A DNA stretch of 64,000 bases, from positions 195,585 through 259,584 of the forward strand of contig CAYFJV010000002.1 of NCBI GenBank assembly GCA_964343575.1, given 5' to 3'. A program made the position numbers and the translations under genes. The stretch is from an uncultured Methanosarcinales archaeon (GTDB taxonomy: Archaea > Nanobdellota > Nanobdellia > Woesearchaeales > GW2011-AR9). This document shows positions 26,245-49,487 of this stretch, piece by piece (within the stretch, counting starts at the first letter, position 1; every line of letters starts with the position of its first letter). The notes under the pieces were generated by a model. The model searched no databases and was not told the DNA's origin. It saw nothing but the letters and a program-made list of their open reading frames with translations.

Positions 26245-26249
26245 TTGAA

Positions 26250-27302: not shown

Positions 27303-28241
27303 ATGAGGTGGAAGATAAGGTACCTATTTGTTGTGGCTGTGGTTCTCTTTAGTTTTTTGCTTAGTGCTTGTAGTGAGATCCCTCAAGGAGAAAGGCCTAC
27401 TGATACTGCCGCAGCGCTTAATCAAGTGCAGTCTGGAACTCAAGGGGTTCAAATACAATTTCTACAGAATTATCCTCCGCCAACGCTTTATGATATTGAT
27501 CAGTTTGTTGCACTTCTTGAAGTAAGTAACAAAGGGAATGATGATTTGCTTCCTCATGAATGTTTTATTCAGCTTAATGGTTTTGATCCAAACATTATTC
27601 GTGGCATTGATTATATCCAATCTTGTGGTGATGTTCCTGGGAAAAGTGTGTATAACTTGGATGGCGGATTCAACCAAATAGAATATGTGTCTAGTAATCT
27701 TGATCTTCCTTTGGGAACTTATGAGTATAACCCTACTATTAACGCAGTTCTTTGTTATGATTATCAAACCAAAACAAGCCCAAGTGTTTGTGTTGATCCC
27801 GTTTTCTACCAAATTAGCTCTGAACAAAAGGCGTGCATTCCTCAAGATGTGGGGATGGGCGGTGGACAAGGAGCTCCAGTGAGTGTTAGTTATGTTGGTG
27901 TGGATATGGTTGGGGATACTGCTATTTTTGAGATTAGTATTAGAAATTCTGCTGGCGGACGAGTCTTGAGTCCTTATTCTGATATTAGTGGTTGTGGAGC
28001 TGTTGCTCTTGATTATGATGATTTAGATAAGGTAAGTTATCTTGTTGAGATGACTGGTGGAAGTTTGATTGAGTGTAATCCTTCCAGTGGTATGGTGCGC
28101 TTGAACAACGAAGCAGGAAAAATTGTTTGTAAGTTTAAGATCAATAGTGCAAGCGCTTTTGAGACTCCACTGCAGATAACGCTTGATTATCATTACTTAG
28201 ATAGTATTCAGAAACAAGTAAAGATTATTGAGACGCCTTGA
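27303..28241 (+). CDS. Putative lipoprotein (paralog 2)
   Basis: MRWKIRY..LLSAC signal; YDY..C..C..GGQGAP motif; ATG 27303 follows the TATA tttatata. Confidence 0.78.
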   Translation: MRWKIRYLFVVAVVLFSFLLSACSEIPQGERPTDTAAALNQVQSGTQGVQIQFLQNYPPPTLYDIDQFVALLEVSNKGNDDLLPHECFIQLNGFDPNIIRGIDYIQSCGDVPGKSVYNLDGGFNQIEYVSSNLDLPLGTYEYNPTINAVLCYDYQTKTSPSVCVDPVFYQISSEQKACIPQDVGMGGGQGAPVSVSYVGVDMVGDTAIFEISIRNSAGGRVLSPYSDISGCGAVALDYDDLDKVSYLVEMTGGSLIECNPSSGMVRLNNEAGKIVCKFKINSASAFETPLQITLDYHYLDSIQKQVKIIETP

Positions 28242-28288
28242 TATGGTGTGTGAAGCTTTTAGTTACTTTTCCTTCTGGATAGTTCTTG

Positions 28289-28452
28289 TGACTCTATCAT
28301 AAGAGATAAAAGGCACGCGCCAAGCGACGCCTTAGGAACTCTTGTCCACCTTTAGATTTTCTCCTGGCGTCGAAAATGGTTCCCAAGAGCATTGCTTCTT
28401 TTTCCGGTTGTGGTCGCAAAGAGGCGCAGGTGCAATCTCTTATGATAGAGCA
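28289..28452. mobile_element. MITE-like non-coding element with terminal inverted repeats and 7-bp target-site duplication
   Basis: Perfect 16-bp IR ctctatcataagagat (28292-28307) / atctcttatgatagag (28435-28450); TG...CA ends; gttcttg flanks at 28282-28288 and 28453-28459; GC-rich internal stems. Confidence 0.6.
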
Positions 28453-28554
28453 GTTCTTGCGAAGGGTTTTTATAGCTGAAATGCATTTTTCTTGAGAGTT
28501 ACTGTTTTATTATTGCATTTGTATCGCATTAAAGAGAGATAGAGGTTGTGTAGT

Positions 28555-29469
28555 ATGAAAATCAAAAACATTCTTTTCGCATGTATTCTTTCTAGCATGT
28601 TGCTTCTGGCGGCATGTTCTGGAAGCGAACCAGCAAGCAGCTTTGAAGGAGCTTACATTGGTGGTGGAGAAGGTATTGAGCTGAGCTTTGAGCCTTTTAG
28701 TGTCTTAGAAGACGGGGTCTACACCATTTTTGATACTGAAGACTTTCCTATTGATGTGCTTATCAAAAATAAGGGTGAGCATACTGTTGCTGCAGGTGAT
28801 GTAAGTCTTACTTTACTTGGTCCTGCTCAGCAAGATTTTGAAAATATTCCTGCTTGGGAACTTGTTAATGTAGAAGAGATTGAAAAAATTTCAGAGTTTA
28901 ATCCAGAAGGTGATGAAGAACTTATCTCTTTTACTCCAGATGATTATGCGGTCTATCTTGGGGAAGTGATTGGTTTTTACGATATCCCTTGGACTTTAGA
29001 TTTTGAATATCTTTATGCAACAAATGTATTGATTGATAACGTTTGTTTCAAAGAAGATATCTCTGATGATCGGGTTTGTGAAGTTGAAGAAGCAAAGGGC
29101 TTTTCTGTTTCAGGAGCACCAATTACTGTTACTTCGGTTGAAGAAGATACTGCGGGGCAAGGCATTATGATGCTTCGTATCAACATCAGGAATACTGGGA
29201 CTGGTGAAGCAACCATCCCAGGAGAAGACTTTGATGATCGTTTTAGCCAAGTTGCTTACACTATTGATGAGCCTGACCTTTGGGAGTGTAAATCTGGTGG
29301 AAGAGAAGATGAAGCTCGGCTGGTAGATGGGGAAGCAGAAGTGATCTGTAAGCTTCGCGAACCACTTGCTGATGGAGAGTTGTACACCAAATCTGTGCAA
29401 CTTACTCTTGATTATGTCTACCAGGACTTGATTACTGAAACTTTGAGAATTAAAGAGAGTATTGAGTAG
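28555..29469 (+). CDS. Putative lipoprotein (paralog 3)
   Basis: MKIK..LLLAAC lipobox; C..C..SGAPITV, INIRNTGTG and LTLDYVY motifs. Confidence 0.78.
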   Translation: MKIKNILFACILSSMLLLAACSGSEPASSFEGAYIGGGEGIELSFEPFSVLEDGVYTIFDTEDFPIDVLIKNKGEHTVAAGDVSLTLLGPAQQDFENIPAWELVNVEEIEKISEFNPEGDEELISFTPDDYAVYLGEVIGFYDIPWTLDFEYLYATNVLIDNVCFKEDISDDRVCEVEEAKGFSVSGAPITVTSVEEDTAGQGIMMLRINIRNTGTGEATIPGEDFDDRFSQVAYTIDEPDLWECKSGGREDEARLVDGEAEVICKLREPLADGELYTKSVQLTLDYVYQDLITETLRIKESIE

Positions 29470-31358: not shown

Positions 31359-33341
31359 TTAGATAAATCTGTTTAGAAAGAGATTGACTTTGTCTCCGAA
31401 GTTTCTTGCCTGAACTGTTACTGGGATCTCTTCTTCGAGAGAATATTCTCTTCCTAGTTCATCGGTCCAAGTCCCAGTAAGGGTGAATTTATTCTCTTGA
31501 GCTAAACCTGCACTATCCAGCTCAAGGATAATCTCTTCGGCTTCTTCCAGACTTGAAATGGTCCAAGTGTTTCTTGCAAATTTGCTTTCAAGAACAAGTT
31601 CAAGGTCTTTTGGAGTCGAGAAAGAGGAACTCTCAACTTTGAAATTAATAAAGAAGGGGTCTTTGTAATAGATGTCTTTTGAAGTTTCACTTTCGATGTT
31701 AATGTTTGCTTCATCTAGTACTTTGATGTTGATAAATTCACTTTTTTTGAACTCTTCATTCTCCGCTTTTACTAGAACACTTTGCCAGCCAACCTCATCA
31801 AAAGTTCCCTCTTCTTCAAGCAGAAATTCCTGATTGATCGGAAGGCTTAGTGCTTGGCAACTGCTGTCTACACAGAATTGGAGATTGTTTAGTTGGGCAT
31901 TTCCTTTGTTTTTAAGTGTGCAAGAAAGTGCTGTTTTTTCTTCCACTGCAACGATTTCTGGATAGTCACAATCAAAACTCACTTGTCTTGTATAAGTTGT
32001 TTCTTCTTCTTCTGGGAGAAGGGTTTTAATTTCGTCAAAACTGTAACTTAATGAGCCTTCTTGCGCCTGAAAATTACCATAAGTTGTTGTATTTTTTTCG
32101 TTGTAAATGAGGTATGGAAAATCATAAATATAATTGTCGTTGAGTTCTTCTTGAACATGGACTACCCAATATATCTCTCTTTGCTCGCTTGGGGAGAGTA
32201 AAATACTTTGTCTTTTCTCGTCAAGAATCTCGATCTCAGGAGGAACGGCAAGAGAAACTGCGCTTGCAACATAATAATCCTCTACATTATTTACAGTTGC
32301 CTTAATAAGATTAAAGCTGCCAAAATCTACCAACTCTGCACTTGTTTCACTCTCAAGAGAGACTTGATCTCTTGCTTGTTGTCCAAAACTTTTGATTTGG
32401 ACTGTGAAGTCGAGCTCTTCTGTTTCAAGATCGACCTCTCTTGCTTTCCACTCATAAAATGTTGAAGCTGAAGTAGCATCAACGCTTTCTTTAAGTTTAA
32501 TATGGGTCACATCCACATAACCAAACTCACCAAATGTGGGATCAAAACTCACCCAACCATATTCTGGGAAGTAAACCTCTGCCCAACCGTGGGCTTGCCA
32601 AGGCTCTGTGAACAGTTCTGAGTTTGTATAAGATACTCCCGTTACAAAACGGGCAGGGATGCCAAGAGATCTACTCATTGCAATAAAAAGAGAAGTCATT
32701 TCATCACAAACTCCTTCTTTGTTTTGAAGAACCCAACTTGAACTTTGTGATGATTTTGCAGTTAGGGTGTTAAGATCGTAATCAATATTTTGGTCAACCC
32801 AAGATGCCAAAGAGAAGACAACTTCATAAAGATCGTCTTTACCTTGAGCAAGCTCATTAGCTTGAGCAATGACATTTTGGTTGCTAAAATCAATGTTTTC
32901 TGTTTCTTCTAGATATAAATGGAGGTCTGGTTCGTCTTGGATGTATTGTTCGATGTCTTGAATAGGAAAAGGGATTTTTTCTGAGATTTCATTTCTTATA
33001 TTGTTAGTTTGCACAACTGTGTTGTAAGAAAAGCTTTGTTCATTGAAGCTTTCAAGTTCTTCTTCGCTCCACTCAAAAAAGACTTTTGGCCCTTGGATTA
33101 TTCCTTGGCTGCTGAAACTTTCTCTTGACTGCTGCAAGCTGTTCTCTGGAAGGAGGTATAACTCTGCGCTTGCCTCTTCAACGAAAGAGGAGTCAGCTAG
33201 GGGGGTAAAGGAGAAGCTTCCTTCGAGATCTAACTCTATCTCCAAAGAGTCATAAAGATAAATGTTTTCTTCAGTTTCTGCTAGTGCAGTTACCGAACAG
33301 AATAATATGAAGAGAAAAAAACTTAGGATCCATAATTTCAT
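31359..33341 (-). CDS. Secreted transglutaminase-like domain protein with C-terminal Ig/CARDB-like domains
   Basis: Signal peptide; triad GVCDEM...LGIPARFVTG...HGWAEVY...WVSFDPT. Confidence 0.88.
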   Translation of the reverse strand: MKLWILSFFLFILFCSVTALAETEENIYLYDSLEIELDLEGSFSFTPLADSSFVEEASAELYLLPENSLQQSRESFSSQGIIQGPKVFFEWSEEELESFNEQSFSYNTVVQTNNIRNEISEKIPFPIQDIEQYIQDEPDLHLYLEETENIDFSNQNVIAQANELAQGKDDLYEVVFSLASWVDQNIDYDLNTLTAKSSQSSSWVLQNKEGVCDEMTSLFIAMSRSLGIPARFVTGVSYTNSELFTEPWQAHGWAEVYFPEYGWVSFDPTFGEFGYVDVTHIKLKESVDATSASTFYEWKAREVDLETEELDFTVQIKSFGQQARDQVSLESETSAELVDFGSFNLIKATVNNVEDYYVASAVSLAVPPEIEILDEKRQSILLSPSEQREIYWVVHVQEELNDNYIYDFPYLIYNEKNTTTYGNFQAQEGSLSYSFDEIKTLLPEEEETTYTRQVSFDCDYPEIVAVEEKTALSCTLKNKGNAQLNNLQFCVDSSCQALSLPINQEFLLEEEGTFDEVGWQSVLVKAENEEFKKSEFINIKVLDEANINIESETSKDIYYKDPFFINFKVESSSFSTPKDLELVLESKFARNTWTISSLEEAEEIILELDSAGLAQENKFTLTGTWTDELGREYSLEEEIPVTVQARNFGDKVNLFLNRFI

Positions 33342-35583: not shown

Positions 35584-35742
35584 ATTTAGATATTTCTTCT
35601 CTTCTTTTTTCTAAATTTTTTGTTACTTTTTCTTGTCTTACTTTACATTTTAGAAAAGGAGAAGTTATTCTCTCTAAAAATATGCTTCTAAACTAGGGCT
35701 TTGAACAGAATCTTTATAAACGAAAACACTCTCTTTTTGCCT

Positions 35743-37992
35743 ATGTTTAAAGAGAGGAAAGATAGAGTTTTTAGTAGTTCTAGCTCCGCTTCTCTAAAGC
35801 TTTCTTCTCAAGTCCAAAAAGGAAGAGTGCGCTTAACGCAAGAGGGTTCTGTTTCAAAGAAAGGACAAGTAACTATTTTTATCATTTTAGGAATCTTACT
35901 TCTCTTGATTGTCGGCTTGGTAATCTTATTACAAACTGAAGTAATCTCTTTCAAAGCTGAAGGGGTTGTCCTTAGTGAAGGAGGTAAAGTAGGTGATTTT
36001 ATTGGAAGTTGTATTCTTTCAGTTGGTGAACAGGCCTTGGTTTTAGCTGGACAACAAGGAGGATACATTGAAGTTCCAGAGCGTTACAGTTCTGATTTGA
36101 ACTGGCACATTCCACTCTCTTCTTTTTTGGATGTTCCTTTATGGGCGAATGGTTTGACTGTGGATAAACCAAGTTTGGATGAAGTTAAATTTGGGGTAGA
36201 TCGTTATGTTGAAGAACATGTGCGAGAATGTTTGTTTTCTACCGGCGTTTTTGAAGAAAGTTATAACTTGGTTGAGAATACGCCAATCCTTTCTGATGTG
36301 CAGTTTGATAATGGCAAAACTCGTTTTGAAGTAAGCTGGAATATTTTGGTTGAAGATGTTTCTGGTGAGTTGGTAACTGAATTGGTGAGCCATGTTGAGG
36401 ATTCTTCCATTCAATTCAAAGAGATGTATGAACTTGCTGATGCCATTTTGATTGATGAAATGAACACTTTGAAATTAGAAGATATTACTCAAGATTTAAT
36501 CGCTCTTGAACACGAATATGTGCCGGTGAGTGGTATTGCTTTGAGTTGTCAGCCGAAACAGTGGAAAGTTGATACTGCTGAGAGTACTTTACAAGATTTG
36601 CTTCGGGTGAATCTTCGTGAACTTCAAATTGAAGGAACAGATGTGATTGATTTTCCTGATACTTTGCCTTACTATCAAAACCATTATGTTTGGGATGTTG
36701 GAGCTGATGCAAAAGATCTTTCTGTTACCTTTCGCTATGATAATGATTTTCCTTTTACTTTTCAAGTGACTCCTCGAGATGGAGCTTATTTGCAGAGCAA
36801 TCAGCTTACTGCTAGTGACTATTTGCCTTTACTTTGTATACAGAATTGGAAGTTTACTTATGATGTAGTCTATCCTGTGATCATTGAAGTGCGAGATAGG
36901 ACAGGAACTGCTTTTCAGATAGCAACTTCTGTTAATTTGATTCGAAATTTCCCAAACAAGGGAGAAACTGTTGTTGCTCGAGCTTCTGGTGAGAGTGGGA
37001 TTGCTAGCGAAGAATTTTGTGAAGAGAGCGGCCATTATGTTCCTATGAATGTCCTTACTTACTCACTTGTTGAAAACCGAGAGACTGGAGTTTATGATAC
37101 GGAACCTTTAGAAGATGCTAACGTCAGTTATTCTTGTTTGAGTCATAGTTGTGAGATTGGAAGCACAGTGTATGATTTTGCTGCCAGAGGAGATGTTGCT
37201 GGTTTAACTGCAGAATTTCCTTACTGTGCTTCAGCTATTGTGCGTGCTGAAAAGGAGAATTATATCGAAGACTGGGTGCAAACTCCTGCTGAAGAAGGGA
37301 AAGATGTTGCTCTTTATTTGACTCCTTTACATGAAATCTCATTGAGTAATGCTCTTATTGCCGTACACGAAATGACAACTCGAGATTGTACTGCTGAAGA
37401 AGAGGCGGTTCACGGTGAGGATGCGCTTTGTTATCATGTTGGAGAAGCTCAAGAGATGGCTGCCGATCAAACAGCTTTAGTGACCTTGCGCTATATTGCG
37501 CCAACTCAAGAGACTTTGGAAGCAGAGCTCTACGGAGAAGTTGAAGAAGATGATGCTTTTGGTGAAACGGAGGGTGAGACTGTTGAAGAAGATGCCGAGC
37601 AAGAGCTTGAAGTGGAAGAACAAGAAGAATTAGGCAGCTTAGATTTTGGCTTTTCTGGCCTGGAAGGAAGTGGCTATGAAGAGCTCTTTAAAGAGGATAT
37701 TATTCTTTCTCCTAGTTTGGATGAGGGCTTTTTGGAAGAGTCTTCCTTTAGAATTTTGGCAGGCGCAGACTTTACTTATGATGTGACCATCTATCTCACT
37801 GATGAAGATGAACTTATCGGAGCTTACAGTGGAGAGTGGATTGCAGATTGGTCAACGCTTGCAGGACCTGGTGCTGGGGTGGTCTTTCATGTGATGAAAA
37901 CTAATCCTGCTGATGAAGAAGTCTTTTTTGATATGATCGCGAGAATGGATGATTTAAGTGTACTTCTCCCAGAAGTGGAGGTGCTTAGCTGA
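35743..37992 (+). CDS. Large acidic surface protein with class III (pilin-like) signal peptide
   Basis: KKG-QVTIFIILGILLLLIVGLVILL; Cys-containing acidic ectodomain; ATG 35743 lies ~23 nt after the TATA tttataaa. Confidence 0.78.
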   Translation: MFKERKDRVFSSSSSASLKLSSQVQKGRVRLTQEGSVSKKGQVTIFIILGILLLLIVGLVILLQTEVISFKAEGVVLSEGGKVGDFIGSCILSVGEQALVLAGQQGGYIEVPERYSSDLNWHIPLSSFLDVPLWANGLTVDKPSLDEVKFGVDRYVEEHVRECLFSTGVFEESYNLVENTPILSDVQFDNGKTRFEVSWNILVEDVSGELVTELVSHVEDSSIQFKEMYELADAILIDEMNTLKLEDITQDLIALEHEYVPVSGIALSCQPKQWKVDTAESTLQDLLRVNLRELQIEGTDVIDFPDTLPYYQNHYVWDVGADAKDLSVTFRYDNDFPFTFQVTPRDGAYLQSNQLTASDYLPLLCIQNWKFTYDVVYPVIIEVRDRTGTAFQIATSVNLIRNFPNKGETVVARASGESGIASEEFCEESGHYVPMNVLTYSLVENRETGVYDTEPLEDANVSYSCLSHSCEIGSTVYDFAARGDVAGLTAEFPYCASAIVRAEKENYIEDWVQTPAEEGKDVALYLTPLHEISLSNALIAVHEMTTRDCTAEEEAVHGEDALCYHVGEAQEMAADQTALVTLRYIAPTQETLEAELYGEVEEDDAFGETEGETVEEDAEQELEVEEQEELGSLDFGFSGLEGSGYEELFKEDIILSPSLDEGFLEESSFRILAGADFTYDVTIYLTDEDELIGAYSGEWIADWSTLAGPGAGVVFHVMKTNPADEEVFFDMIARMDDLSVLLPEVEVLS

Positions 37993-40900
37993 TGGTTAGG
38001 ATGAAAATGGCTAGGAAAACTTTCCTTCGTTATTTTGCACTCTTTGTTATCGTTTTATTCTTGAATCTTCCTGTAGTTAGTGCTTTGCAGATATCGGGAG
38101 TACAAAGTAGTGGTGTTACACATAGTGATGCTATCATTAATTGGGAAACAGATGAGGCTGCGGACAGTGTTGTTCGTTATGGAACTGATCCTGCTGCGTT
38201 GAGTAGTTTTGTTTCAGGAAGCAGCTTGGTGACTGAACATAATGTTGGTTTGGGTGGGCTTGATCCTGAGAGTGAATATTTCTTTGAAGTAGAAAGCGGT
38301 GGAGTGGTTGATGATAATGCTGGTGCTTATTACTCTTTTATGACTTTGGCTGATCCTGCTGCTGCTGTCCTTGTTGATGATACTGACTTAGATGTGGATG
38401 TTGAAGAGGAAGCTGCTGAGATTGATGATGAACCTACTGTTGTTGGTGATATTTTAGTTAGTTTGGATATTCCTGAGATTATTGCTGGTATAGATTTAGA
38501 TTTTAGTGGAAGCACTACTGAAGGAGCCGACGTTCGTCTTTATGTTAATGGGCAGTTTCACTCAAAAGTTGTTGCTGGAGTTGGAGGGGGCTTTTCTTTT
38601 ACACAGATAGATCTTCTCGCAAATGAGTATAATGTTATTGAAGTTGAAGCAACGCTTGGAGAGTCGGTTGCACTGGCTGTGGCAACGGTGTTTAGCGATG
38701 CAACTCGACCTGAATTGACTTTAGATCCTGTTCCTTTACATATTTTTGATGATGAGCTCGTACTGAGCGGTTCTGTAAGTGAAGAGACTACTATCGTTTT
38801 GGAGATTAATGGCGCGCGCGTTTTTGATACAGTTGGGACTAGTTTTTCTTTTGAAGTAAAACATCTTGATGAAGGAGAGAACGACTTTGTCTTAACTGCT
38901 ACTGATGTTGCCGGCTTTACTGCAGTGGAAGATTTTGTTGTGATTGTGGATACTATGAACCCTGATGTTGAGGCAGTAATCGAAAAGGGAAATGAATACT
39001 ACCAAGGAAGTTCTTTTGGCACTTTGAGTGATCCTAGTTTGGATAGCAGAACAACAACTGATATCTCTGGAACAACCGAGGCTGGCGCTGAGTTGTTTCT
39101 TTTTGTGTACAAACAGCTTGCTTATGAGTATGCTCCAACTTTTGATGATCCAGTTGCTAGTGTTTTTGCTGATGCTGAAGGGAATTTTGTTTTCGAAGAT
39201 ATTAATTTTGCAGTTGACTTACCGAGTTTGGATGACTTCACTGCCATTGTTGTTCCACCTGAATTGGAAGGAGTTTCTGTTGTCCCTGAAACTGCAATAG
39301 AGCAGGCGCAGACTTTGAATTATCATTTTTTTATTGTTGCAGTAGATGTTGCTGGAAGAACTGGATCTTGGAGAGAGATTGTGCAAGTGCATACTTGTTA
39401 TTCCGAAAACTTTGATTTTCAAATAACTAATCTGCCAGAATTTCAACGTCCTTACCGATTAGATCCAGGACTTCTTGACGATGGAAGAGAAGAAGCTCAT
39501 GCTGTTTTTGAGCTTGAATATCGAGGAGATGGTTATACTCCTTCTGGAGTGAGTGGGCCAACTTCTGATACACCTTACAAGATAAATAATGTTGAGTTTC
39601 AAGAAGCTTGTACACAATCTATGCTTGAAGGAGATGATATTTTTGCGCTTGGTTGTAACATCTTACCAAGCACACCAAGTGAAGTTTTAGCAAACCCTGA
39701 TGCAAGCGCCCATTATTTGACTTGGAGATTGTTTAGCTCAGAAAAATTTAGTGATACTGATGATGATTTTTGGAATGAATACCAAGATAGAACACTTAAG
39801 TTTCCTTTGAAGGTGAGCGTAAAATATCAAGAGTATGACGCGCAAGGAAATTTGGGGCCTTCACAAACGCAAAGCAGTTGTTATGATCTTGTTTATCATG
39901 TTGATATCCCTTTGGAAAGTGAGAAACTGATTCCTGATGTTTTAGCTGAGGATGCTGCAGCAGTTATCAATAAAACTTTGGAAGCTCTTGATACCATTTT
40001 GCCTTATGTAGAAAAGGCAGTCTTGGTCACTGGGATTAGTTGTTTTGTTTCTTTGGGAGTAAAAACTGTGGTTCGTTTTGCTCGTATCTTTGCTTCTAAA
40101 GCAGAAGTGATTAGTGGGCAAGCCGAAGTTGTTGCGGGTACAAAAAATGCAAATGAAGTTTGCCCCCTAGATCAAAGTGGCTTATACCTTGAGAAGACTA
40201 GAAACCATTGGGATGATTTGAAGGGCCAGAATGGTTATGTTGGTGGTAGTAAGCATGCAGTTAATGAAGAGAATGGCCTTCCTTCTGGTTTTGATTCTTC
40301 AAATAATGAGCAGTATCTAGAAGAGCGTTGTCCGCAAACCGCAAGCATGTGGAAAGCTGAAGCAATTCTTGATGATGCTTATCTTTGGACTTGTGATCGT
40401 TTCTTGTGCCGGGCAGTTCCTGCAAAGTGGACAGAAGATGAGCAAAAACCTCGAGTTGATGCGGCTTATTTGAGTCAGCAAGCTTGCGCTGTAACTGCTG
40501 GTTGTACTCCTCTTCGAAAATTTGAAAGTTGTGAAAAACATGTTAAAGACACCCAAGGCGGAGTTTTACCAGCGACGGTTCCTAGTGGAACTTATCAATG
40601 TTGGGAAAAAACAGGTAGTGAACTCCCCCTGGCAGGTGAGTTTGTTGCCAACCTTTACTACAAACCAAGTGATCCTAGCTTTCAAGATAATGCTTTGCTT
40701 GATAAAGGAGTTGTTCGTTTGCAAAGAGCGAGTGGTACTATTAGTACTTCTCCAGATCTGTTAGATAAAGATTCTATTCTTGCTTACCAGGAACCTGGCT
40801 CTGATAATTTATGTGGCGCGCAAGACTTTAGTTGTAGTCAAGTTTGTGCTCGAAACCAGGCGGGAAGCTACACTGCGGTGGAAGATGGTTGGAACCCAGG

Positions 40901-43568
40901 AAACCTTGATCCTACTGCCAGCGCCCCGGGAACTGTTGCAAGCACTGGTGCTTGTTATAAGCAAACGCTTGATGCTGCCACTGGAGAGACCATCTTGGTT
41001 GATGGAAAAGGAGAAGTGCTTAATGGTAGAGATAAGTATGCAGCAGGTTTTACTAACGATTGTTTTGTAGGTAATGATAAAGAAATGTATCAGTGTGTTT
41101 GTCAGGGAGAACCAACTAAGCAACTTCATGTTGGTAAAAGGACTGCGGCGCCGAAAGATACAGACTCAAATTTTGCTGAAAAGTATAGCTACAGGCAAGA
41201 TCGATTGTACCAGGAAAGTAATGGAGTTATGGGAACTTATTATCCTGAATGGCGTTATTATGTTGGAAGAGATGTTTCTGGAGCCTTTGGCTTTAATCAC
41301 ATTAGTGATTACTTCCGTCCTGATGAGCAAAAGAAGTTTCCAGAGATCAATCCAAAAACTCAGCCGATTTCAACTTGGCAGGCACTTTGTTTGAGCGGTA
41401 TTTACAATCAACTTCGTATGGTACAAAGTATTTTGCAAGGACTTGGTACTTGTATTGAAGAAGCGAAGTATACTGGGCTTAAGGATGCTGGTATGTGTAA
41501 AACTTTGTTCACGCAACATGTTTGTGGTTTGTTCTACAAAGTGATTGCAGCAGGTCAAAGTCAGTGTACGCCAAGCCACTTCCAGGATGCTAGTTTTAAA
41601 GGTGATGATGGTTTAGGAGCCTACTTTAGTGCAGGGACTGATTCATTCTATGAAGCACTTGATAGTGGCTTTGATGATTTAGAAAATACTTATGGAAATG
41701 CGCAGTTAACTAACTACTTTGGGGCCGGTGTGCAAGGATTTACTGAATCTATGTGTTTGGCAGCCTTTGGTTTTGATTTTCCAATTGGTAATGATTTTAT
41801 CATGGATACTGCCTATAGTGTTTCAAGTAAGACTAGTGCTTTGGTATTGCCTGCAACTCGCGAGTTCTCTCACTATAACCCAGCGAGTCTTACTGCGGTG
41901 TATAATTATGAGGTTGGCGCTGCAGTATTCCCTGGATGTAAAGTTGCTCGTTATGATACTTTACTTCGTTGTGTGAATACTGAGGATCTTCAGTATCCGG
42001 GAGTTGTTTGCGAGAGTGGGCAGTGTGATTGTTTGAACGCTTTTGAACAGTCTCCATTTGAGAGCGAGCGTGAAATTTTACTTCCAGGAGGTTCTGGTTT
42101 CCAAATGGATTCGGGAGCAATGATTGATCTTCCAATTGAAGTTCCTCAAAAGATTGACAAGCACTTCAGGTATGATCATGTTGTTGTTCGTATGACTTTG
42201 GAACCGGGCTATGAACAAGAAGATTGTTTCGAACCAGGCCAGTATTGGGGAGATAATGGGGGTGTGTTCTATTATCCAATCACTGATGTTACTCCTGGAA
42301 CGCTTAGTTGTCAGGTTGAATCAACAACTGGACAATACAGTTGCTCTGCGCTGAGTGATATCTTTTATGGAGGAAGCTTTGCTTTCTTAGAGGCACCTTA
42401 CTTGGCTTGTTATGATAAAAATAGTGGGCTTTATCGTGAATGTAACACTCCAAATTTGTTTACCTTGGATGGTGCGGATGATATTAAGTTCAAAACTTAC
42501 ATGAACACAGATGACAAAGGGTATTGCTTAGAAGTTGAGACTACTGGGACAGGCGTTACTTATGGTACGCAACGTATTTTGATTCCAAAAGGAAGCACTG
42601 GACAACGTCAACCAGAGATTAGTTTGGGACCAGTTACTTCAGCAATGTTTGGAGCGCAAATTTTGGGTCTTGAGGCAGAAAGTAGTAGTGCACTTACTTG
42701 TCCAGCTTTCTTAACTGGCACTGCAGTTGGAAGCCCGATTGGTGATGGAGTTCGTGTACAATTTACTTACGAGTACAACACTGGTGGCTTTAAGGTTAGG
42801 GAGGCTAGTGGAAGTAAAGATATTTCTATTCGATCTAGCGGCTACAGTTTCAAAACTGATGGAACTATTGTACGGGACATTGATGGGATCACTATTTTAC
42901 CTCTTAGTGAGATTAATGGGCTTGAGTTTGAAGTTGGTGGTGTTTCCTTTAAGGGGATACTTGGTAGTTCTGCAGTAGGGAACGGTGCTTGTAATTACCG
43001 GGTGCAAGATTCTGATCCTGCAAGCGGTGGCAATGAGCGAACGATCAGTGTTACTGCAAGACTTTTAGAGACTGATCCTTTGGGTGGTTGTTACTCTGCA
43101 AGTGAGCCAGTGGTGGCAAGCAGTTCACTCGGAAGGTCAAGCGCGGAAACTCAAATTTTGATTCAGCAAAGTGTGAGTGCAACAGGTGTTACAAGTCCTC
43201 TTCATACTGTCTTTGTTACTGGAGATTATGTACAAACACAAACGCTTGCTGAGCAGCAGATCTTAGCTAGCGATGGAACTCTTGATGAAGTAATTGGAAT
43301 TTATTATTTTGTAGCAGCTACTATCGCTCCTCATGGACCAGTTTGGGCAAGTTCTGCGCCAGTGGTTGATAGTGTTAAAGTCTTGCTTGATCGTTTCTTC
43401 TTGAGAAGAGATGCGGGAGGAGTTACACTTTCCATGTTTGATGAGACGACTGTGCAGAATACTGCGGAATTCCAAAGCGTTCGAATGTACCTTTGTAGCA
43501 TTGCTGATGATATTGGGGTGAAGGCAGAGTATGGGCCGGGTGCTGTGCCGGGGTATTATTGTCCTTAG
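37992..43568 (+). CDS. Giant (1858 aa) secreted protein: FN3-like N-terminus, Ig-like repeats, Cys-rich C-terminal region
   Basis: Sec signal; FN3/PAP-N motif (INWETDE...VRYGT...HNVGLGGLDPESEYFFEVES); Ig motifs (LDEGENDFVLTATDVAG, IVDTMNP); many Cys; start overlaps the upstream stop. Confidence 0.8.
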   Translation: MVRMKMARKTFLRYFALFVIVLFLNLPVVSALQISGVQSSGVTHSDAIINWETDEAADSVVRYGTDPAALSSFVSGSSLVTEHNVGLGGLDPESEYFFEVESGGVVDDNAGAYYSFMTLADPAAAVLVDDTDLDVDVEEEAAEIDDEPTVVGDILVSLDIPEIIAGIDLDFSGSTTEGADVRLYVNGQFHSKVVAGVGGGFSFTQIDLLANEYNVIEVEATLGESVALAVATVFSDATRPELTLDPVPLHIFDDELVLSGSVSEETTIVLEINGARVFDTVGTSFSFEVKHLDEGENDFVLTATDVAGFTAVEDFVVIVDTMNPDVEAVIEKGNEYYQGSSFGTLSDPSLDSRTTTDISGTTEAGAELFLFVYKQLAYEYAPTFDDPVASVFADAEGNFVFEDINFAVDLPSLDDFTAIVVPPELEGVSVVPETAIEQAQTLNYHFFIVAVDVAGRTGSWREIVQVHTCYSENFDFQITNLPEFQRPYRLDPGLLDDGREEAHAVFELEYRGDGYTPSGVSGPTSDTPYKINNVEFQEACTQSMLEGDDIFALGCNILPSTPSEVLANPDASAHYLTWRLFSSEKFSDTDDDFWNEYQDRTLKFPLKVSVKYQEYDAQGNLGPSQTQSSCYDLVYHVDIPLESEKLIPDVLAEDAAAVINKTLEALDTILPYVEKAVLVTGISCFVSLGVKTVVRFARIFASKAEVISGQAEVVAGTKNANEVCPLDQSGLYLEKTRNHWDDLKGQNGYVGGSKHAVNEENGLPSGFDSSNNEQYLEERCPQTASMWKAEAILDDAYLWTCDRFLCRAVPAKWTEDEQKPRVDAAYLSQQACAVTAGCTPLRKFESCEKHVKDTQGGVLPATVPSGTYQCWEKTGSELPLAGEFVANLYYKPSDPSFQDNALLDKGVVRLQRASGTISTSPDLLDKDSILAYQEPGSDNLCGAQDFSCSQVCARNQAGSYTAVEDGWNPGNLDPTASAPGTVASTGACYKQTLDAATGETILVDGKGEVLNGRDKYAAGFTNDCFVGNDKEMYQCVCQGEPTKQLHVGKRTAAPKDTDSNFAEKYSYRQDRLYQESNGVMGTYYPEWRYYVGRDVSGAFGFNHISDYFRPDEQKKFPEINPKTQPISTWQALCLSGIYNQLRMVQSILQGLGTCIEEAKYTGLKDAGMCKTLFTQHVCGLFYKVIAAGQSQCTPSHFQDASFKGDDGLGAYFSAGTDSFYEALDSGFDDLENTYGNAQLTNYFGAGVQGFTESMCLAAFGFDFPIGNDFIMDTAYSVSSKTSALVLPATREFSHYNPASLTAVYNYEVGAAVFPGCKVARYDTLLRCVNTEDLQYPGVVCESGQCDCLNAFEQSPFESEREILLPGGSGFQMDSGAMIDLPIEVPQKIDKHFRYDHVVVRMTLEPGYEQEDCFEPGQYWGDNGGVFYYPITDVTPGTLSCQVESTTGQYSCSALSDIFYGGSFAFLEAPYLACYDKNSGLYRECNTPNLFTLDGADDIKFKTYMNTDDKGYCLEVETTGTGVTYGTQRILIPKGSTGQRQPEISLGPVTSAMFGAQILGLEAESSSALTCPAFLTGTAVGSPIGDGVRVQFTYEYNTGGFKVREASGSKDISIRSSGYSFKTDGTIVRDIDGITILPLSEINGLEFEVGGVSFKGILGSSAVGNGACNYRVQDSDPASGGNERTISVTARLLETDPLGGCYSASEPVVASSSLGRSSAETQILIQQSVSATGVTSPLHTVFVTGDYVQTQTLAEQQILASDGTLDEVIGIYYFVAATIAPHGPVWASSAPVVDSVKVLLDRFFLRRDAGGVTLSMFDETTVQNTAEFQSVRMYLCSIADDIGVKAEYGPGAVPGYYCP

Positions 43569-43617: not shown

Positions 43618-44205
43618 ATGCAAAGAGAACAAAGAAGGAAGCTTTTTTTTGGAAATAAAAATGGGGAATTAGCTAAAGAGGCTCTTTTGATGCTTGTTAC
43701 TGTTGTACTGACAAGTGCCCTGGTATTTTCCCTTTTGCACTTTGGAATTCTTAAAGTTGATGGAAGTGCGACTCATCAAGATATCTTGAACACAGAATTT
43801 TTACCTTTTGATCGTGGAGGTGAGCTTGCCGTTAAGAATTTTCGTTTTTGCAACGAAGTGAGCAGTGAGCTTGGTTGTATGAGTGTGCAAGAAAGCTTTA
43901 TTCTAGGGGAGGAAGTGCACTTTTTCTTTGAAGTGATGAGCACCGTGTACAATGGAGATCTTTTACTTGTTGAGAATTATGAATTGGTTGCTCCAGATGG
44001 AAGAGTTATTCTTGCAATAGATGAGAAGAATGATTTTTACTTTGAAACTACCAGCTCTTCGAGTAGAGAAATAGTTTATTTTGATGATTATTTTGTGCTT
44101 GGAGCAAGTGAAGATCCCGGGATTTATACTTTGAATGTTGTAATTAAAAATCCTATTATTGACAAGCAAATTGTTTTGAGTGAACAATTTAGTGCGGTAG
44201 GTTAA
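43618..44205 (+). CDS. Membrane-anchored protein with possible class III signal and Ig-like domain
   Basis: NKNG-ELAKEALLMLVTVVLTSALVF; C-terminal PGIYTLNVVIKN Ig-like strand. Confidence 0.65.
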   Translation: MQREQRRKLFFGNKNGELAKEALLMLVTVVLTSALVFSLLHFGILKVDGSATHQDILNTEFLPFDRGGELAVKNFRFCNEVSSELGCMSVQESFILGEEVHFFFEVMSTVYNGDLLLVENYELVAPDGRVILAIDEKNDFYFETTSSSSREIVYFDDYFVLGASEDPGIYTLNVVIKNPIIDKQIVLSEQFSAVG

Positions 44206-44255: not shown

Positions 44256-45560
44256 ATGGCTTATATTGAAGACATTAAGGCTTTGGAAATTTTAGATAGT
44301 CGAGGACATCCTACTTTAGAAGTTACTGTTTTTACTGAAGGAGGAGCGTTCTCTGCGTCTGTGCCAAGTGGGGCTTCTACTGGGAAGTACGAGGCGAAAG
44401 AATTGCGTGATGGTGGGAGACGTTATTTTTCTTTAGGTGTTCGTAAGGCGGTGCAGGTTATTGAGAAAAAGATTGCTCCTCGCTTGAGAGGGATGTCGGT
44501 GTTTACTCAGAGCGAAATTGATCTTTTGTTAGTAGATTTAGATCATAGTAAAGGAAAAGGGCGTTTTGGTGCGAACGCTTTACTTGCAGTAAGTTTAGCT
44601 TGCGCTAGAGCAGGAGCGCATCATCATGGTTTGCCTTTGTTTGCTTACCTTTGGCAATTGAGTGATTTTGGGGGCTCAGTTCGCGGAGGAAACTTGCGCA
44701 TGCCTCAATTGTATATGAATGTACTTAATGGGGGAAAGCACGCAGGAAATAAGCTTGCCATTCAAGAGTTTATGATTGTTCCTCAGTCAAGTAGTTTTGC
44801 AAAAAACTTGCAGATAGCATCGGAAGTGTATCATGCTCTTGGAAATCTGATTGAGAGAGAGTATGGTTCTGTCTATCGCTCGGTTGGGGATGAAGGGGGT
44901 TTTGCTCCACCGATTCGTGATCCTGAAGAGGCTTTAGATCTTTTGAAAAAGGCTGTTCGAAAAGCAGGTTATTCTTTGAGCAAAGTTCGTTTTGCTCTTG
45001 ATTGTGCTGCATCAGAGTTTTATTCTGAGAAACGGCGACCTGGAAAGGGAAGTGCTTACCTTTTGTCTTATCAGTTGCATAAGAAGTTTAGTCCTGGGGC
45101 TTTGCAAGAATATTATCTTAAGCTTGTTAAGAAGTATAAGCTGGTCTCACTTGAAGATCCTTTTGAGCAGGAAGATTTTTCGAATTTTGCGGAGCTTCGA
45201 GCTGCATTGCGAAAAAAGAAGTTGAAATGTCAAATTGTTGGCGACGATCTTACCGTTACCAATGTTGATCGTATTGAGAAAGCTGCTGATGCTGGAAGTT
45301 GTGATTGTCTTTTGTTGAAAATGAATCAGATTGGAACACTTAGCGAGGCGCTTGGGGCTGCTCGAGTTGCTCGTGATGCAGGATGGAAGGTTATGGTGAG
45401 TCATCGTAGTGGAGAGACTTGTGATAGTTTTATTGCAGATTTGGCTGTTGGGTTGGGTTGTGGTATGATTAAAGCAGGCGCTCCAAGTCGAGGTGAGCGG
45501 GTTGCTAAGTATAATCAGTTGCTTAGGATTGAGCGCTACAAAAAAATTCACTGCTTGTGA
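44256..45560 (+). CDS. eno: Enolase
   Basis: EILDSRGHPT, VPSGASTG, GDEGGFAP, DCAASEFY, GDDLTVTN and SHRSGET motifs. Confidence 0.98.
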   Translation: MAYIEDIKALEILDSRGHPTLEVTVFTEGGAFSASVPSGASTGKYEAKELRDGGRRYFSLGVRKAVQVIEKKIAPRLRGMSVFTQSEIDLLLVDLDHSKGKGRFGANALLAVSLACARAGAHHHGLPLFAYLWQLSDFGGSVRGGNLRMPQLYMNVLNGGKHAGNKLAIQEFMIVPQSSSFAKNLQIASEVYHALGNLIEREYGSVYRSVGDEGGFAPPIRDPEEALDLLKKAVRKAGYSLSKVRFALDCAASEFYSEKRRPGKGSAYLLSYQLHKKFSPGALQEYYLKLVKKYKLVSLEDPFEQEDFSNFAELRAALRKKKLKCQIVGDDLTVTNVDRIEKAADAGSCDCLLLKMNQIGTLSEALGAARVARDAGWKVMVSHRSGETCDSFIADLAVGLGCGMIKAGAPSRGERVAKYNQLLRIERYKKIHCL

Positions 45561-45698: not shown

Positions 45699-47456
45699 AT
45701 GAAGGGAAGGAGGAGTTTATTGCTTGGACTTTTGTTTTGTTGCAGTTTGTTCTTAGTTTTGCCTCTTGCGAGTGCTGCAGAGTTTTACTACAGTGATGAT
45801 GTTGCTGGTAACGTTGTTTTAGCAATGAGTGAGCTTTCTGATGGAGATTTATTCTTTCTCTTTCTTGGGGGGACCGAAGAAGTGTTTGATTCTTCCTTGT
45901 ATGAAGTGGGCGTTGATGGAATAGATCATCTTTCCAGTGATGAACTTCTTTCTTGGGGAGCTGATGTGACTGGAGTTGTTCTGAATCCGCTTTCAAGTGG
46001 TTATTTTATTCAGGATTATTTCGATGATTTTGGTGCAGAGATAATCTTCTTGGATAAGACATATGAGAGAGAAGTTTTTAGTGTCTTTTCAGAACATCGT
46101 CTTATCAATGGGGACAGATTTTATCTGGATGGTTCTTTGAGTCCCACATTTTATGATGGTTATGAAGGAACTTATGAGCAACAGGCAGAAGGGATGTATG
46201 ATCGCGACGGTGGATACTTGTATCTCTTTGGAGAGAGTGTGAAAGCAATTGTCTATGATCCTGACCCACACTGTAGTGATCTTGCTTGCCAGTACAATTC
46301 TATGCTTGTTGGTAGCTCAGAAGTGGAAGTTGTCTTTTTGGATGTTGACTGGGGAGAATTCTTTCTGGGAGATTATTTTCCTGAGGAACTTGAAGCTGAA
46401 TCTGGGGAGGAAAGCGTTCGTGGAGGAGCCGGTGCTTCGAAAAGTACAACTATGACAGGCACAGATAGTTCGATCTCTTTAACTACAAGCTCAACAAGTT
46501 CTCCCCCCCAAGCAGCAGTAGAAGAACCTGCTCCTCGAGAGTTTACCGGACTCCTTTGTGATAAAGTTGATATTTGTAGACAATTGCATGAAGTTTGGCA
46601 GGTATTGCACCGTGACGTGTTTCGAGCTCAAGGAGTTGATGAACTTTATTGGAAAGCAGAAGATAGAGATGGTGGTGAGTGGGTTTCTTGGACAACGCTT
46701 TATCCTATTGCTGCAACAGTGACTTATGATGTTTGTGGTGAGCCAGCAAGTGCTTCCTCTTTGGCAGCGCAATATCAAGATGAAATTGAGGCGGCGGTTA
46801 CTGCTCATCCCATTAATGGTTTAGAGCGAGAAGAACAAATTGCACTTACTAAAGCTATCATCGAGCGTGAAAGTAATTTTGAGCCACACGCTATCTCTTT
46901 GACTGGCTGTTCTGGTTTAATGCAAGTGTGTTGGCCTTCAAGTTATATTGCTAATGATAGAGAAGTTGCTTGTTGTCCTGGGGCAGAGCTTGGAGAAGTT
47001 GCTCTTCGTACAAATTGTTTGAATGAGAGAACTGCTTGTGGTGGTTCTATTGCCTGGTGTGCTGAAGGAGGTTATGATTGTAGTCCAAGTACCGATGATC
47101 GCTTGAGTGCAGGACCTAACATCATGGCAGGGACTCAAATCCTTGGAGAAAAGTTTTCCTCTATCGGTAACTGTGGAACTGAACGAGTAAAAGCAGCGAT
47201 TTCTGCCTATAACCTTGGACAAGCAGCCGTTAAAGAAGCAATTAACGCAAATGGCGGGAATTGTAATATCTGGAAAGACGTGTATGCTCATCTTGCGGAT
47301 AATTTTTACGAAGAAGAGAATCGACTTTTTGACCTTCCACCTCAGAATTATTACACTTCCTTTAAGATTGAGAATCAACGAGATGCTTGTGATGCTTATG
47401 TGGGAAGAGTTTACGCTAGTTATCTGGGCTACTTAGAGAATCCTTCTGTGAGTTGA
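45699..47456 (+). CDS. Secreted protein with C-terminal lytic transglycosylase (SLT/GH23-like) domain
   Basis: Signal peptide; S/T linker; motif I KAIIERESNF.P.AIS, motif II GLMQV, NIMAGTQIL, motif III AISAYNLG. Confidence 0.85.
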   Translation: MKGRRSLLLGLLFCCSLFLVLPLASAAEFYYSDDVAGNVVLAMSELSDGDLFFLFLGGTEEVFDSSLYEVGVDGIDHLSSDELLSWGADVTGVVLNPLSSGYFIQDYFDDFGAEIIFLDKTYEREVFSVFSEHRLINGDRFYLDGSLSPTFYDGYEGTYEQQAEGMYDRDGGYLYLFGESVKAIVYDPDPHCSDLACQYNSMLVGSSEVEVVFLDVDWGEFFLGDYFPEELEAESGEESVRGGAGASKSTTMTGTDSSISLTTSSTSSPPQAAVEEPAPREFTGLLCDKVDICRQLHEVWQVLHRDVFRAQGVDELYWKAEDRDGGEWVSWTTLYPIAATVTYDVCGEPASASSLAAQYQDEIEAAVTAHPINGLEREEQIALTKAIIERESNFEPHAISLTGCSGLMQVCWPSSYIANDREVACCPGAELGEVALRTNCLNERTACGGSIAWCAEGGYDCSPSTDDRLSAGPNIMAGTQILGEKFSSIGNCGTERVKAAISAYNLGQAAVKEAINANGGNCNIWKDVYAHLADNFYEEENRLFDLPPQNYYTSFKIENQRDACDAYVGRVYASYLGYLENPSVS

Positions 47457-47537
47457 AGGTGCTTGTGGTTGAGCTTGCTTGTGATTGTGACTTTAAGCAA
47501 GAAATCTTTTTAATTCTCTTTGATTTGCCAAGCTTCT

Positions 47538-49487
47538 ATGGACGTAGGTAAGGAAAGGAGGGTTGTTGATGCCCATGGTTTACTCTCTTTTCTTGAGCAG
47601 AAAGAGGATTTTTATTCCTCTAAAGATTTTTCTTTGTTCAAGAAAGCGATAGGTTTTGCAAAGGAGTATCTTTCTTCCCAAAAGCGTCTCTTTGGAGATT
47701 CTTTGTATGAGCACAATCTTCGTGTAGCTAAAATTTTGGCTGAGAACAAGGCTTCTCCGGAAACTCTTCTTGCTGGACTTCTGCATGGGATCGTAAAATT
47801 TGTTTCTGCTAGTGAGGTTGAGGAAGCTTTTGGAGCTGGAGTGAAAGAAGTTTTGGAAATAGTTCAAGGTGTTGAAGATATCAGTAAGATTAAACTTCGT
47901 AATGAACAACTTGCGGCTGAGGCGCTTCGAAAAGTTCTGCTTGCAACTGTACGTGATGTGCGTATTATCTTGGTTAAATTAGCTGATAAGCTTGACAATC
48001 TTTTTGATGTAGAAGTTTTAGGTAAGGAAGAGGTTCAGCGTATTTGTCAGGAGGTTCTGGAGATTTATGCCCCTCTTGCGTACCGATTGGGAGTTGAAAA
48101 GGTGAGGGTGAGTTTAGAAGACCTTGCCTTTAAGCGGCTCCATCCCAAAAAATACAGTGAGATTCAACACTATCTTGATGAAACTCGAGAGGAACGTGAA
48201 GAACACATTGCTTTTGTTCTTGATAAAATAAAGAAGGAAAGTCCTGTTAAAATACTCAAGATAAAGGGACGTAGTAAGCATGTTTACAGTATCTACAAAA
48301 AGATGACTGAAAGAGGAGTTAAGTTAGATAGGCAGTATGATCATTTAGGAATTCGTATCCTCGTTTCTGATGAGAAAGAATGTTACTCTCTCCTTGCTTT
48401 TTTGCACCAGGCTTTTGAGCCCATTGCTGGTCGTCTCAAAGATTACATTGCTCACCCTAAACCAAACGGCTATCAATCTTTGCACACTTCTGTCTTACTG
48501 GGAGAAGGAAGGGCAAAAGGTGCTGCGCGTCGTTTGGAAGTTCAGATTCGAACTTTGCAGATGGATGAGTTTGCTGAAGAAGGACTTGCTGCCCACTGGC
48601 GTTACAAGGGAATGAAGTCAGATTATTCTTTTGAGAAACGTATGGCTTGGCTTAAAGGCGTGCTAGATATGCAAAAGGATGCTAGTGCCCGCGAGTTTTT
48701 GGAAAATGTACAAGTAGATGTTTTTACCGATGAAATCCATTGTTACACTCCAAAAGGAGAGGTAAAATATTTCCCAAAAGGATCTACCGTCCTTGATTTT
48801 GCCTACTCAGTGCATGAAGAGGTTGGCAACCATACTTTTGGAGCCCGCATTAACGGAAAGTTTGTAAGCATTAAAGCCGAACTTGAGGATGGTGCCGTTA
48901 TTGAAATTTTGACTTCCAAAAAACAGTTGCCTCGGCGTAATTGGATAAAGTACGTGAAAAGCACTAGGGCGAAGCAGAAAATTAGAAAAGGCGTAAAGAA
49001 ATATCAGAACCTACCTGCACTTCATTATCGAACCTTTAAGCCAGTTGTTGATGAGAGTCATGCGAGCCTTGTACATTCTTTAGAGCACAGTAATGCTGCT
49101 TGCGTCCTTGCTAAATGTTGTTTGCCTGTTCCTTGCGAGAATATTGTAGGGATCATTACTAAACGTCGGCTTGTATCTGTACATAAACAAAATTGTAGGT
49201 TGGCGCTTAAGGAAGAGGAGCGTTGGGTTCCAGTAGAGTGGAAGGATATGGTCAGTAAAAAGATTGAGTTTTTTGTTACTGCTGGAGAGCGTTCCGGATT
49301 GCTTGCTGATTTGTTGCACACTATTGCTCAAGCTCGTTTTCAAGTGCAAGAAGCAAAGGCAAAGTTCTTAGGAACTGGGAACTCTGAATGTAGTTTTGTT
49401 ATTGTTCCAAAAGAAATGTCAGAGATTGCTTTATTGGTGGCCCGTTTGAAGAAAGTTAAGGGTGTGAAGCAGGTGTATTTCTCTTAG
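47538..49487 (+). CDS. Long RelA/SpoT homolog: (p)ppGpp synthetase with TGS, Zn-binding and ACT domains; hydrolase degenerate
   Basis: GRSKHVYSIYKKM, KDYIAHPKPNGYQSLHT, EVQIRT, AAHWRYK; TGS TVLDFAYSVH; AKCC.P...VH...C; ACT ERSGLLADL. The HD motif reads LLHG. Confidence 0.93.
   Translation: MDVGKERRVVDAHGLLSFLEQKEDFYSSKDFSLFKKAIGFAKEYLSSQKRLFGDSLYEHNLRVAKILAENKASPETLLAGLLHGIVKFVSASEVEEAFGAGVKEVLEIVQGVEDISKIKLRNEQLAAEALRKVLLATVRDVRIILVKLADKLDNLFDVEVLGKEEVQRICQEVLEIYAPLAYRLGVEKVRVSLEDLAFKRLHPKKYSEIQHYLDETREEREEHIAFVLDKIKKESPVKILKIKGRSKHVYSIYKKMTERGVKLDRQYDHLGIRILVSDEKECYSLLAFLHQAFEPIAGRLKDYIAHPKPNGYQSLHTSVLLGEGRAKGAARRLEVQIRTLQMDEFAEEGLAAHWRYKGMKSDYSFEKRMAWLKGVLDMQKDASAREFLENVQVDVFTDEIHCYTPKGEVKYFPKGSTVLDFAYSVHEEVGNHTFGARINGKFVSIKAELEDGAVIEILTSKKQLPRRNWIKYVKSTRAKQKIRKGVKKYQNLPALHYRTFKPVVDESHASLVHSLEHSNAACVLAKCCLPVPCENIVGIITKRRLVSVHKQNCRLALKEEERWVPVEWKDMVSKKIEFFVTAGERSGLLADLLHTIAQARFQVQEAKAKFLGTGNSECSFVIVPKEMSEIALLVARLKKVKGVKQVYFS

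Follow-up and report, generated by a model that had tools for sequence, protein, structure and literature searches.

What use does an archaeon without detectable murein synthesis have for an exported enzyme of the kind that cleaves bacterial cell walls? We studied this question at a gene for a 585-amino-acid (aa) protein in a window of 64,000 nucleotides, the whole stretch of DNA analyzed here (positions 195,585 to 259,584 of contig CAYFJV010000002.1, assembly GCA_964343575.1), which was deposited as an uncultured Methanosarcinales archaeon and belongs by its GTDB lineage to the Woesearchaeales, family GW2011-AR9 (the order and the family referred to below). The gene is an open reading frame (ORF) without internal stops, located at 45699..47456 in the positive strand, the strand of all features given below unless stated otherwise. 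A preliminary description, made from the sequence alone, had read its product as an exported, disulfide-stabilized peptidoglycan lytic transglycosylase (LT) with an SLT domain, long domesticated and acting on bacterial walls. Our results point to a predicted secreted LT that likely cleaves the sugar backbone of bacterial peptidoglycan. The gene occupies a slot of a cluster conserved in the family, and in the proteins encoded there a constant Trp-rich module, named here the W-module, is combined with catalytic domains of changing type. On balance we favor the view that bacteria are the target of a family-wide surface apparatus in which the SLT protein is the exchangeable part that breaches the wall.

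The SLT domain and its catalytic residues

The signal peptide, acidic N-terminal domain, Ser/Thr linker and SLT motifs named in the preliminary description were all recovered from the ORF, its composition and a motif scan. The only hydrophobic segment of the protein, an N-terminal stretch (aa 6-24) ending in ASA/A, fits by eye a Sec-type signal peptide (predicted at aa 1-26; 45699..45776). The catalytic domain (SLT, or GH23; about aa 355-580; 46761..47438) was matched in two stretches by the hidden Markov model PF01464, the search suggested earlier, with 49 bits (curated cut-off 21.3; E 5.4e-13), well above what chance would give; no other Pfam family was found in the protein. A single-sequence search of the PDB with the SLT part gave no match at E 0.01, and a profile of 60 homologues matched 47 PDB sequences, with MltC (E 1e-21), Slt70, MltE and MltF at the top. 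The structure model of aa 280-585 reached a pLDDT (predicted local distance difference test) of 83.6. Its best structural match was MltF (Z 16.8, root-mean-square deviation 3.1, 173 aligned residues), followed by MltC (Z 14.7) and MltE (Z 14.6), and the top 15 Foldseek matches were all LTs.

The catalytic residues are in place. Motif I (IIERES, starting at residue 387) carries Glu391 (46869..46871), which corresponds to E64 of MltE and E478 of Slt70 in the alignment, and motif III (AYNLG) starts at residue 503 (47205..47219). Residues E391, S400, T402 and Y567 align with E64, S73, S75 and Y192 of MltE, the catalytic set placed in the quantum-mechanical layer in the accessible part of the MltE study (PMC5841429). 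Motif II (GLMQV, starting at residue 406) lies between C404 and C411 (46908..46931), so that the position directly after it is a Cys. Goose-type lysozymes carry there a second catalytic Asp, which separates them from LTs. The HMM match, the fold and these residues agree with the exported SLT enzyme of the preliminary description.

A constant module joined to interchangeable catalytic domains

The W-module (aa 287-345; 46557..46733) is an unnamed Trp-rich segment with the consensus Cx5CxEIDEVW..VWD..W, overlooked in the preliminary description. It had no consistent match in Pfam, PHROG or PDB, and a profile search of the PDB was without meaningful match. The module was present in 96 of the 114 family genomes (63 of the 67 of high quality), in one or two copies each, as compared with 3 of 393 other genomes of the order, two of these matches containing stops, and 1 of 265 non-family genomes of the phylum sample. 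In some genomes (e.g., at L204 and L214) two W-module genes stand in tandem, with a predicted secreted protein of about 280 aa encoded between them. The W-module is the constant part of the slot protein. The variable accessory part is represented here by an acidic orphan domain (aa 27-240; 45777..46418) with 47 Asp and Glu versus 6 Lys and Arg, the Cys residues C192 and C197, and a model of pLDDT 33.6. No homologues of this domain were found in the protein collection, Atlas, PHROGs or the slot proteins, and one weak match (E 0.007), not convincing as a homologue, appeared among 400 other genomes of the order. It is followed by the linker (aa 241-283; 46419..46547), 40% of which is Ser or Thr.

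The scan covered 59 slot proteins whose loci had been chosen by enolase and 42 chosen through the W-module alone; after one fragment and one fusion of the giant protein (see below) were dropped, 99 remained, among them two contig-end fragments and three included by position or SLT match. A named wall-hydrolase Pfam was found in 57 of the 99, SLT in 19; also present were the stem-peptide enzymes M15/VanY, Amidase_2, M23 and M74, together with Phage_lysozyme2, Hydrolase_2, glucosaminidase and GH25. The remainder had DUF2272 only (9), accessory domains only (20; SGNH/GDSL, metallophosphoesterase, EEP, DUF218, FGE-like and deacetylase) or nothing (13). The held-out set, picked by the W-module, gave similar classes: hydrolase in 20 of 41, DUF2272 only in 3, accessory domains only in 11 and nothing in 7. 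DUF2272, which we take to be a CHAP-like peptidase, had no match in a PDB search and was counted apart from the hydrolases. Two further types recognized with local profiles were confirmed, one as lambda lysozyme (PDB 1am7, E 3e-9; phrog_90) and the other as a phage lytic transglycosidase (PDB 9udh, E 5e-38). The slot holds about eleven enzyme types: SLT, amidase, M15, M23, M74, GH25, GH73, SleB-type and three phage-type lysozyme domains.

The catalytic domains are swapped among close relatives. Across the species of one genus the slot holds phage-tail lysozyme, lambda-type, SleB-type and GH73 domains, that is, four glycan-cleaving types. Presence of SLT on a 68-row tree of the neighboring protein P195 required 12 changes, 4 of them forced by starred branches (shuffled mean, 16). 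In two genomes of the same genus, gene fragments before the RelA gene end in a lambda-lysozyme-like plus SGNH region in one and, by eye, in an M15-like motif in the other. An SGNH esterase domain was found in 21 of the 99 slot proteins; O-acetyl groups block LTs, and SGNH partners fit their removal. An FGE-sulfatase-like domain was found in 18 of the 99 (e.g., L169, L170, L175 and L260). This fold is a variable ligand-binding domain elsewhere in DPANN archaea, and by analogy the slot domain may be a host-recognition part.

The conserved gene cluster

The cluster begins with a gene for a 763-aa acidic protein without Pfam match (35701..37992), followed by one for a secreted Cys-rich FN3/Ig protein of 1,858 aa, the giant (37992..43568; about 1,850 aa in the conserved order), by that of P195, a 195-aa pilin-like protein (43618..44205), and by the W-module gene. 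The 763-aa and 195-aa proteins have, by eye, pilin-like N-termini of class III type; the SLT protein has none, its N-terminus being of Sec type. A gene for a T2SSE-family secretion or pilus ATPase is present elsewhere in the genome. P195 was found in 104 of the 114 family genomes, and its gene was directly upstream of the W-module gene in 67 of 89 loci and within three genes in 7 more (74 of 89). In 9 of the remaining loci the fetched DNA contained no ORF upstream, and in 6 other genes stood there. Two flanking markers lie at the slot: an enolase gene (44256..45560), outside the system, which separates P195 from the slot gene in this genome and a few of its close relatives, and a RelA/SpoT homologue (47520..49487). 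A definition of the slot by the enolase and RelA genes was dropped, as the held-out set ties the slot to the giant and P195. The RelA/SpoT homologue is of the long form, with HD, synthetase, TGS and ACT domains, and occurs in 102 of the 114 family genomes, one of them by a weak match.

In G228, a genome of another family, a W-module lies near the C-terminus of a giant protein (E 5e-8), and P0079, a distant homologue of the giant, contains an SLT domain with the Cys pair described below at aa 1977-2183. These fusions fit the idea that giant, W-module and SLT are parts of one device, fused in some lineages and split here. The W-module and P195 profiles showed no relation to each other, and that of P195 had no meaningful PDB match. 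Complex prediction for P195 and the W-module scored 0.00 with the partner fold uncertain, which is evidence neither way. We also noted a transglutaminase-like gene near the cluster (31359-33341, negative strand) and PF01841, the transglutaminase-like family, fused in 5 of the 120 giant homologues listed. Two P195-like genes that diverge from each other (L163 and L289) lie on separate contigs of one 77%-complete bin (G002), by duplication or because the bin is mixed.

Paired cysteines and a bacterial branch

The segment following motif II (aa 412-465; 46932..47093) is 54 aa long, as compared with about 21-22 aa in Escherichia coli MltE, MltC and Slt70. The preliminary description had announced an insertion of about 55 aa; the length of the segment is as stated, but the distance between motifs II and III is 91 aa versus 52-60 aa in the E. 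coli enzymes, so the net insertion is only about 34 aa and its size had been overstated. The six Cys residues described for it were confirmed in their pattern (C425, C426, C440, C447, C454 and C461). We counted the Cys pairs in 97 proteins from a representative search, of which 87 were parsed by motif and 10 were not. C404 and C411 were both present in 70 of the 87, both absent in 17 and never found singly, and in a 60-row alignment the co-occurrence was also high for 426/440 (phi 0.90), 425/461 (phi 0.82) and 287/293 (phi 0.93); these proteins are kin and the counts are not independent. The proposed disulfide stabilization finds indirect support because the Cys residues are gained and lost in pairs and a VKOR gene is present in the genome. 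The putative disulfides would be C404-C411 around motif II and 425-461, 426-440 and 447-454 in the insert; further pairs are predicted at 192-197, 287-293, 346-564 and 492-522. The style of the protein had also been likened to that of its neighbors: these are similarly acidic (14-18% Asp and Glu, 6-8% Lys and Arg), but the Cys content is higher in the SLT protein, 3.1% versus 1.0-2.3%.

The C404/C411 clamp marks an SLT subfamily that is also present in records of Myxococcota and Bradymonadales. A motif scan of 185,579 genomes yielded 37 loci, of which 21 carry archaeal labels and 16 bacterial ones; 11 of the latter were labelled Myxococcota, Bradymonadales or Lujinxingiaceae and 5 had other labels. 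Clamp and Cys-bearing insert were found in 16 of 16 bacterial loci, a biased set since the search pattern itself demanded the clamp. The bacterial proteins have the motif GC.GLMQ.C and mostly hydrophobic N-termini, and four Bradymonadales or Myxococcota loci have upstream genes in common. In the 60-row tree the SLT domain studied here groups with SLTs of archaea of the same family (support 99/89), and the 10 rows from bacteria are nested, within the Cys clade, with an archaeal SLT (100/98). The archaeal and bacterial clamp SLTs therefore form, by sequence, one common subfamily. A transfer from archaea to Myxococcota is not claimed, as the approximately unbiased test fails to reject archaeal monophyly (p 0.165). 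Myxococcota and Bradymonadales are predatory bacteria. Among the archaeal SLTs, the one nearest to the Myxococcota clade (L168, G060:C40) is encoded at the end of a long run of genes for proteins with pilin-like N-termini.

Native origin of the locus

The gene is native to a Woesearchaeota-type genome. The assembly has 1.21 Mb in 6 contigs, with 95% completeness and 0.6% contamination; the contig of the SLT gene, 485 kb long, carries archaeal ribosomal genes, and the genes of the window itself include archaeal ribosomal, LonB and RFC genes. The GC content at third codon positions is 0.285 in the SLT gene and 0.28-0.35 in the adjoining genes. The named records among the nearest homologues of the SLT and giant proteins were mostly labelled Woesearchaeota, Nanoarchaeota or 'archaeon'; several labelled Methanosarcinales sit in the same clade, and we judge these labels doubtful. 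Bacterial-type genes (RelA/SpoT, GAPDH) do flank the locus, as they would in an assembly chimera or a bacterial contamination, but we give that explanation hardly any credence: besides the contig, the contamination value and the codon composition just given, the nearest SLT domains are archaeal, RelA and enolase occur in 102 and 92 of the 114 family genomes, and the same gene cluster is present in dozens of them, a synteny that already contradicts it. Composition, synteny and the tree likewise bear out the long domestication proposed earlier. PF01464 matched in 41 of 61 sampled genomes, this one among them; an SLT in this order is therefore ordinary.

Other genes of the same genome deserve mention. 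A second SLT-like gene (L031 3395-4543, negative strand; G000:C1:587394-588542) encodes 382 aa with an N-terminal membrane helix and a large helical insert, matching PF01464 at the cut-off and phrog_669 with E 7e-5; about 1.5 kb from it lies a gene for an exported thioredoxin/DsbA-like protein, as judged by eye. Three short M23 peptidase genes were found (G000:C1 303473, 326261 and 326787; L300-L302); the two that were read are in tandem and encode 162-163 aa without obvious signal peptide. Within the window, five co-directional ORFs of 307-673 aa (22759-29469) had no Pfam match.

Proposed function and alternative explanations

Because the same slot holds amidases and stem-peptide peptidases in relatives, peptidoglycan is a far firmer target than the single SLT domain would make it. 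Neither a Mur ligase C domain nor a transpeptidase was found in this 95%-complete genome. Both results suit the earlier proposal of an action on bacterial walls. We propose that the protein would be exported by the Sec route and its disulfides formed; C404-C411 would fasten the hairpin of motif II, and three more pairs would keep the inserted lobe in place. Glu391 would act as acid/base in cleaving the bond between N-acetylmuramic acid (MurNAc) and N-acetylglucosamine, leaving 1,6-anhydro ends as in MltE. The W-module would hold the enzyme at a complex of giant and pilin-like proteins or, alternatively, would bind the wall, and the bacterial wall would be opened locally so that the archaeon could attach or feed. 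By exchange of its catalytic domain and of the accessory esterase and phosphoesterase domains, the device would be adapted to other walls or to walls with chemical protection. A bolder version, which we offer tentatively as a possibility, is that the family consists of obligate parasites or predators of bacteria. Their giant scaffold and pilin-like subunits would load, via a dockerin-like W-module, a warhead drawn from about eleven enzyme types without relation to one another, and partners that remove acetyl groups or cleave phosphoesters would tune it; the warhead would predict the wall type of the host, and the Cys-clamped SLT would have been exchanged with predatory Myxococcota and Bradymonadales.

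Several of our results weigh against a surface apparatus aimed at bacteria. The SLT protein itself is without membrane anchor, pilin-type signal or known wall-binding domain; the pilin-type signals of its neighbors were judged by eye from a consensus; neither SLT nor W-module was found among the 120 nearest giant homologues listed; and the evidence from fusions consists of two proteins, the G228 giant and P0079. With the local profiles, a hydrolase other than DUF2272 was assigned to 81 of 97 slot proteins (72 of 86 complete ORFs), a partly circular figure as the profiles were seeded from the same slot proteins, partly by eye; even so, 13 of the 97 had no hydrolase match and 3 had DUF2272 only. 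The genomes counted for the W-module and the slot are kin, and these counts are not independent. A GH124 cellulase and a GH23 chitinase have the same fold, at the lower scores of Z 11.1 and Z 9.4, respectively, and the glutamate of motif IV (Glu583 in Slt70, where the motif reads E-T-x-x-Y-V) is Ala563 here, with Tyr-Val retained; MltE likewise lacks this Glu and has Gln instead. The fold common to chitinase and cellulase, the missing Glu and the large lobe inserted near the cleft would suit a domain that cuts or binds a non-bacterial glycan (chitin, or the surface glycan of an archaeal host or of the cell itself), or that only binds. We hold this to be very improbable, since murein LTs account for all of the best matches by structure and by profile, and since enzymes named after MurNAc-Ala and stem-peptide bonds alternate with the SLT in the slot.

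Two other explanations keep peptidoglycan as the substrate. The enzyme might digest the walls of dead bacteria for sugars, peptides, acetate or phosphate, no live host being attacked; the SGNH esterase, phosphoesterase and deacetylase domains of the slot could free small nutrients, and recycling of cell material by DPANN archaea is discussed in the accessible part of PMC9723730. Such scavenging seems unlikely to us, as no more than one or two slot proteins are kept per genome and these carry one to three types of hydrolase, not a complete digestive set, the types are swapped among close relatives, and the slot is tied to the pilin-like and giant surface genes. Alternatively, the protein might be a freely secreted antibacterial weapon comparable to the haloarchaeal hydrolases of Strock et al.; its W-module would then be a new peptidoglycan-binding domain and the pilin-like genes would be bystanders. 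The Sec signal, the lack of an anchor and the conserved Trp and Tyr of the W-module, which suit sugar binding, agree with this, and the replacement of catalytic domains beside a constant module parallels the history of PG_binding_1 as given in the part of PMC12352652 consulted. We nevertheless consider it quite unlikely, given that nearly every genome of the family has the gene, fixed in the chromosome and not patchy or plasmid-borne like the weapons described in that part of the paper, and that G228 has the W-module fused to its giant protein.

Comparison with known systems

The archaeal protein has in common with MltE, MltC, MltF and Slt70 (family 1 LTs, GH23) the fold, the catalytic Glu, motifs I-III and the equivalents of S73, S75 and Y192. 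It alone has C404 and C411 around GLMQ and about 34 extra residues with six Cys, and it differs further in the Ala at the motif IV Glu of Slt70 and in an archaeal host without detectable murein synthesis.

So far, sporadic GH23 annotations have been the basis for asking whether any DPANN archaea live on bacteria. In one family we now see a wall hydrolase that is near-universal, as judged by the W-module, and fixed in position, and the slot turns the question of bacterial hosts into concrete tests with small expressible parts: an enzyme of 235 aa whose catalytic Glu is defined, a module of 60 aa and a partner of 150 aa. The W-module and the slot also offer a marker for host-pairing surveys, and proteins of this kind would escape surveys in which a known wall-binding domain is required.

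The preliminary description overstated the surprise of an archaeal SLT, as such domains of Woesearchaeota and Pacearchaeota have been published. In the accessible parts of two papers, murein-like LT domains are reported in large extracellular proteins of both groups, with bacterial hosts proposed (Castelle et al. 2021, PMC8204110), and GH23 in five Woesearchaeota metagenome-assembled genomes (Vigneron et al. 2022, PMC9723730). In the former, the family fam00969 comprises 201 proteins, with 1,947 aa listed and GH23 in 53% of the members (Table S3), and sizes reach 3,000 aa. Lineage, GH23/SLT domain, secretion (predicted here) and proposed target, the wall of a bacterium that is possibly the host, are the same as in our case. 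In contrast, the SLT protein has 585 aa and is encoded apart from the 1,858-aa giant, and the W-module, the fixed slot, the swapping of hydrolases and the Cys clamp are not described in the consulted parts of either paper. By its size and one fusion the giant may be a fam00969-type protein; the two are not equated here, SLT being present in 0 of the 120 giant homologues listed.

Archaeal peptidoglycan hydrolases that kill bacteria have also been reported, in a survey that, in the part consulted, takes in a protein only if it has a known binding domain (Strock et al. 2025, PMC12352652). Its modular Woldo and Danwoldo hydrolases are, like the slot proteins, secreted archaeal wall hydrolases with domain shuffling, and are prominent in Nanoarchaeota. 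The differences, as far as the accessible text goes, are that a known wall-binding Pfam was required there and none is present in the SLT protein, and that those genes are patchy and often plasmid-borne whereas the slot is a family-wide chromosomal fixture.

The arrangement of the locus resembles that of bacterial LTs as well. VirB1, EtgA and PilT, specialised LTs of pili and secretion systems, are encoded beside surface-apparatus clusters and open the wall of the producer itself or of a mating partner. The SLT gene studied here is likewise located with such a cluster, and a local opening of the wall is proposed for it; it differs in its polymorphic catalytic domain and in an archaeal producer without detectable wall synthesis. 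The literature searched, mostly non-subscription and with few supplements, gave no description of the W-module, of the fixed polymorphic slot or of a clamp common with Myxococcota. The SLT protein alone is a new member of a published class, and the new part is the family-wide slot, in which a constant module is joined to interchangeable wall-cutting enzymes.

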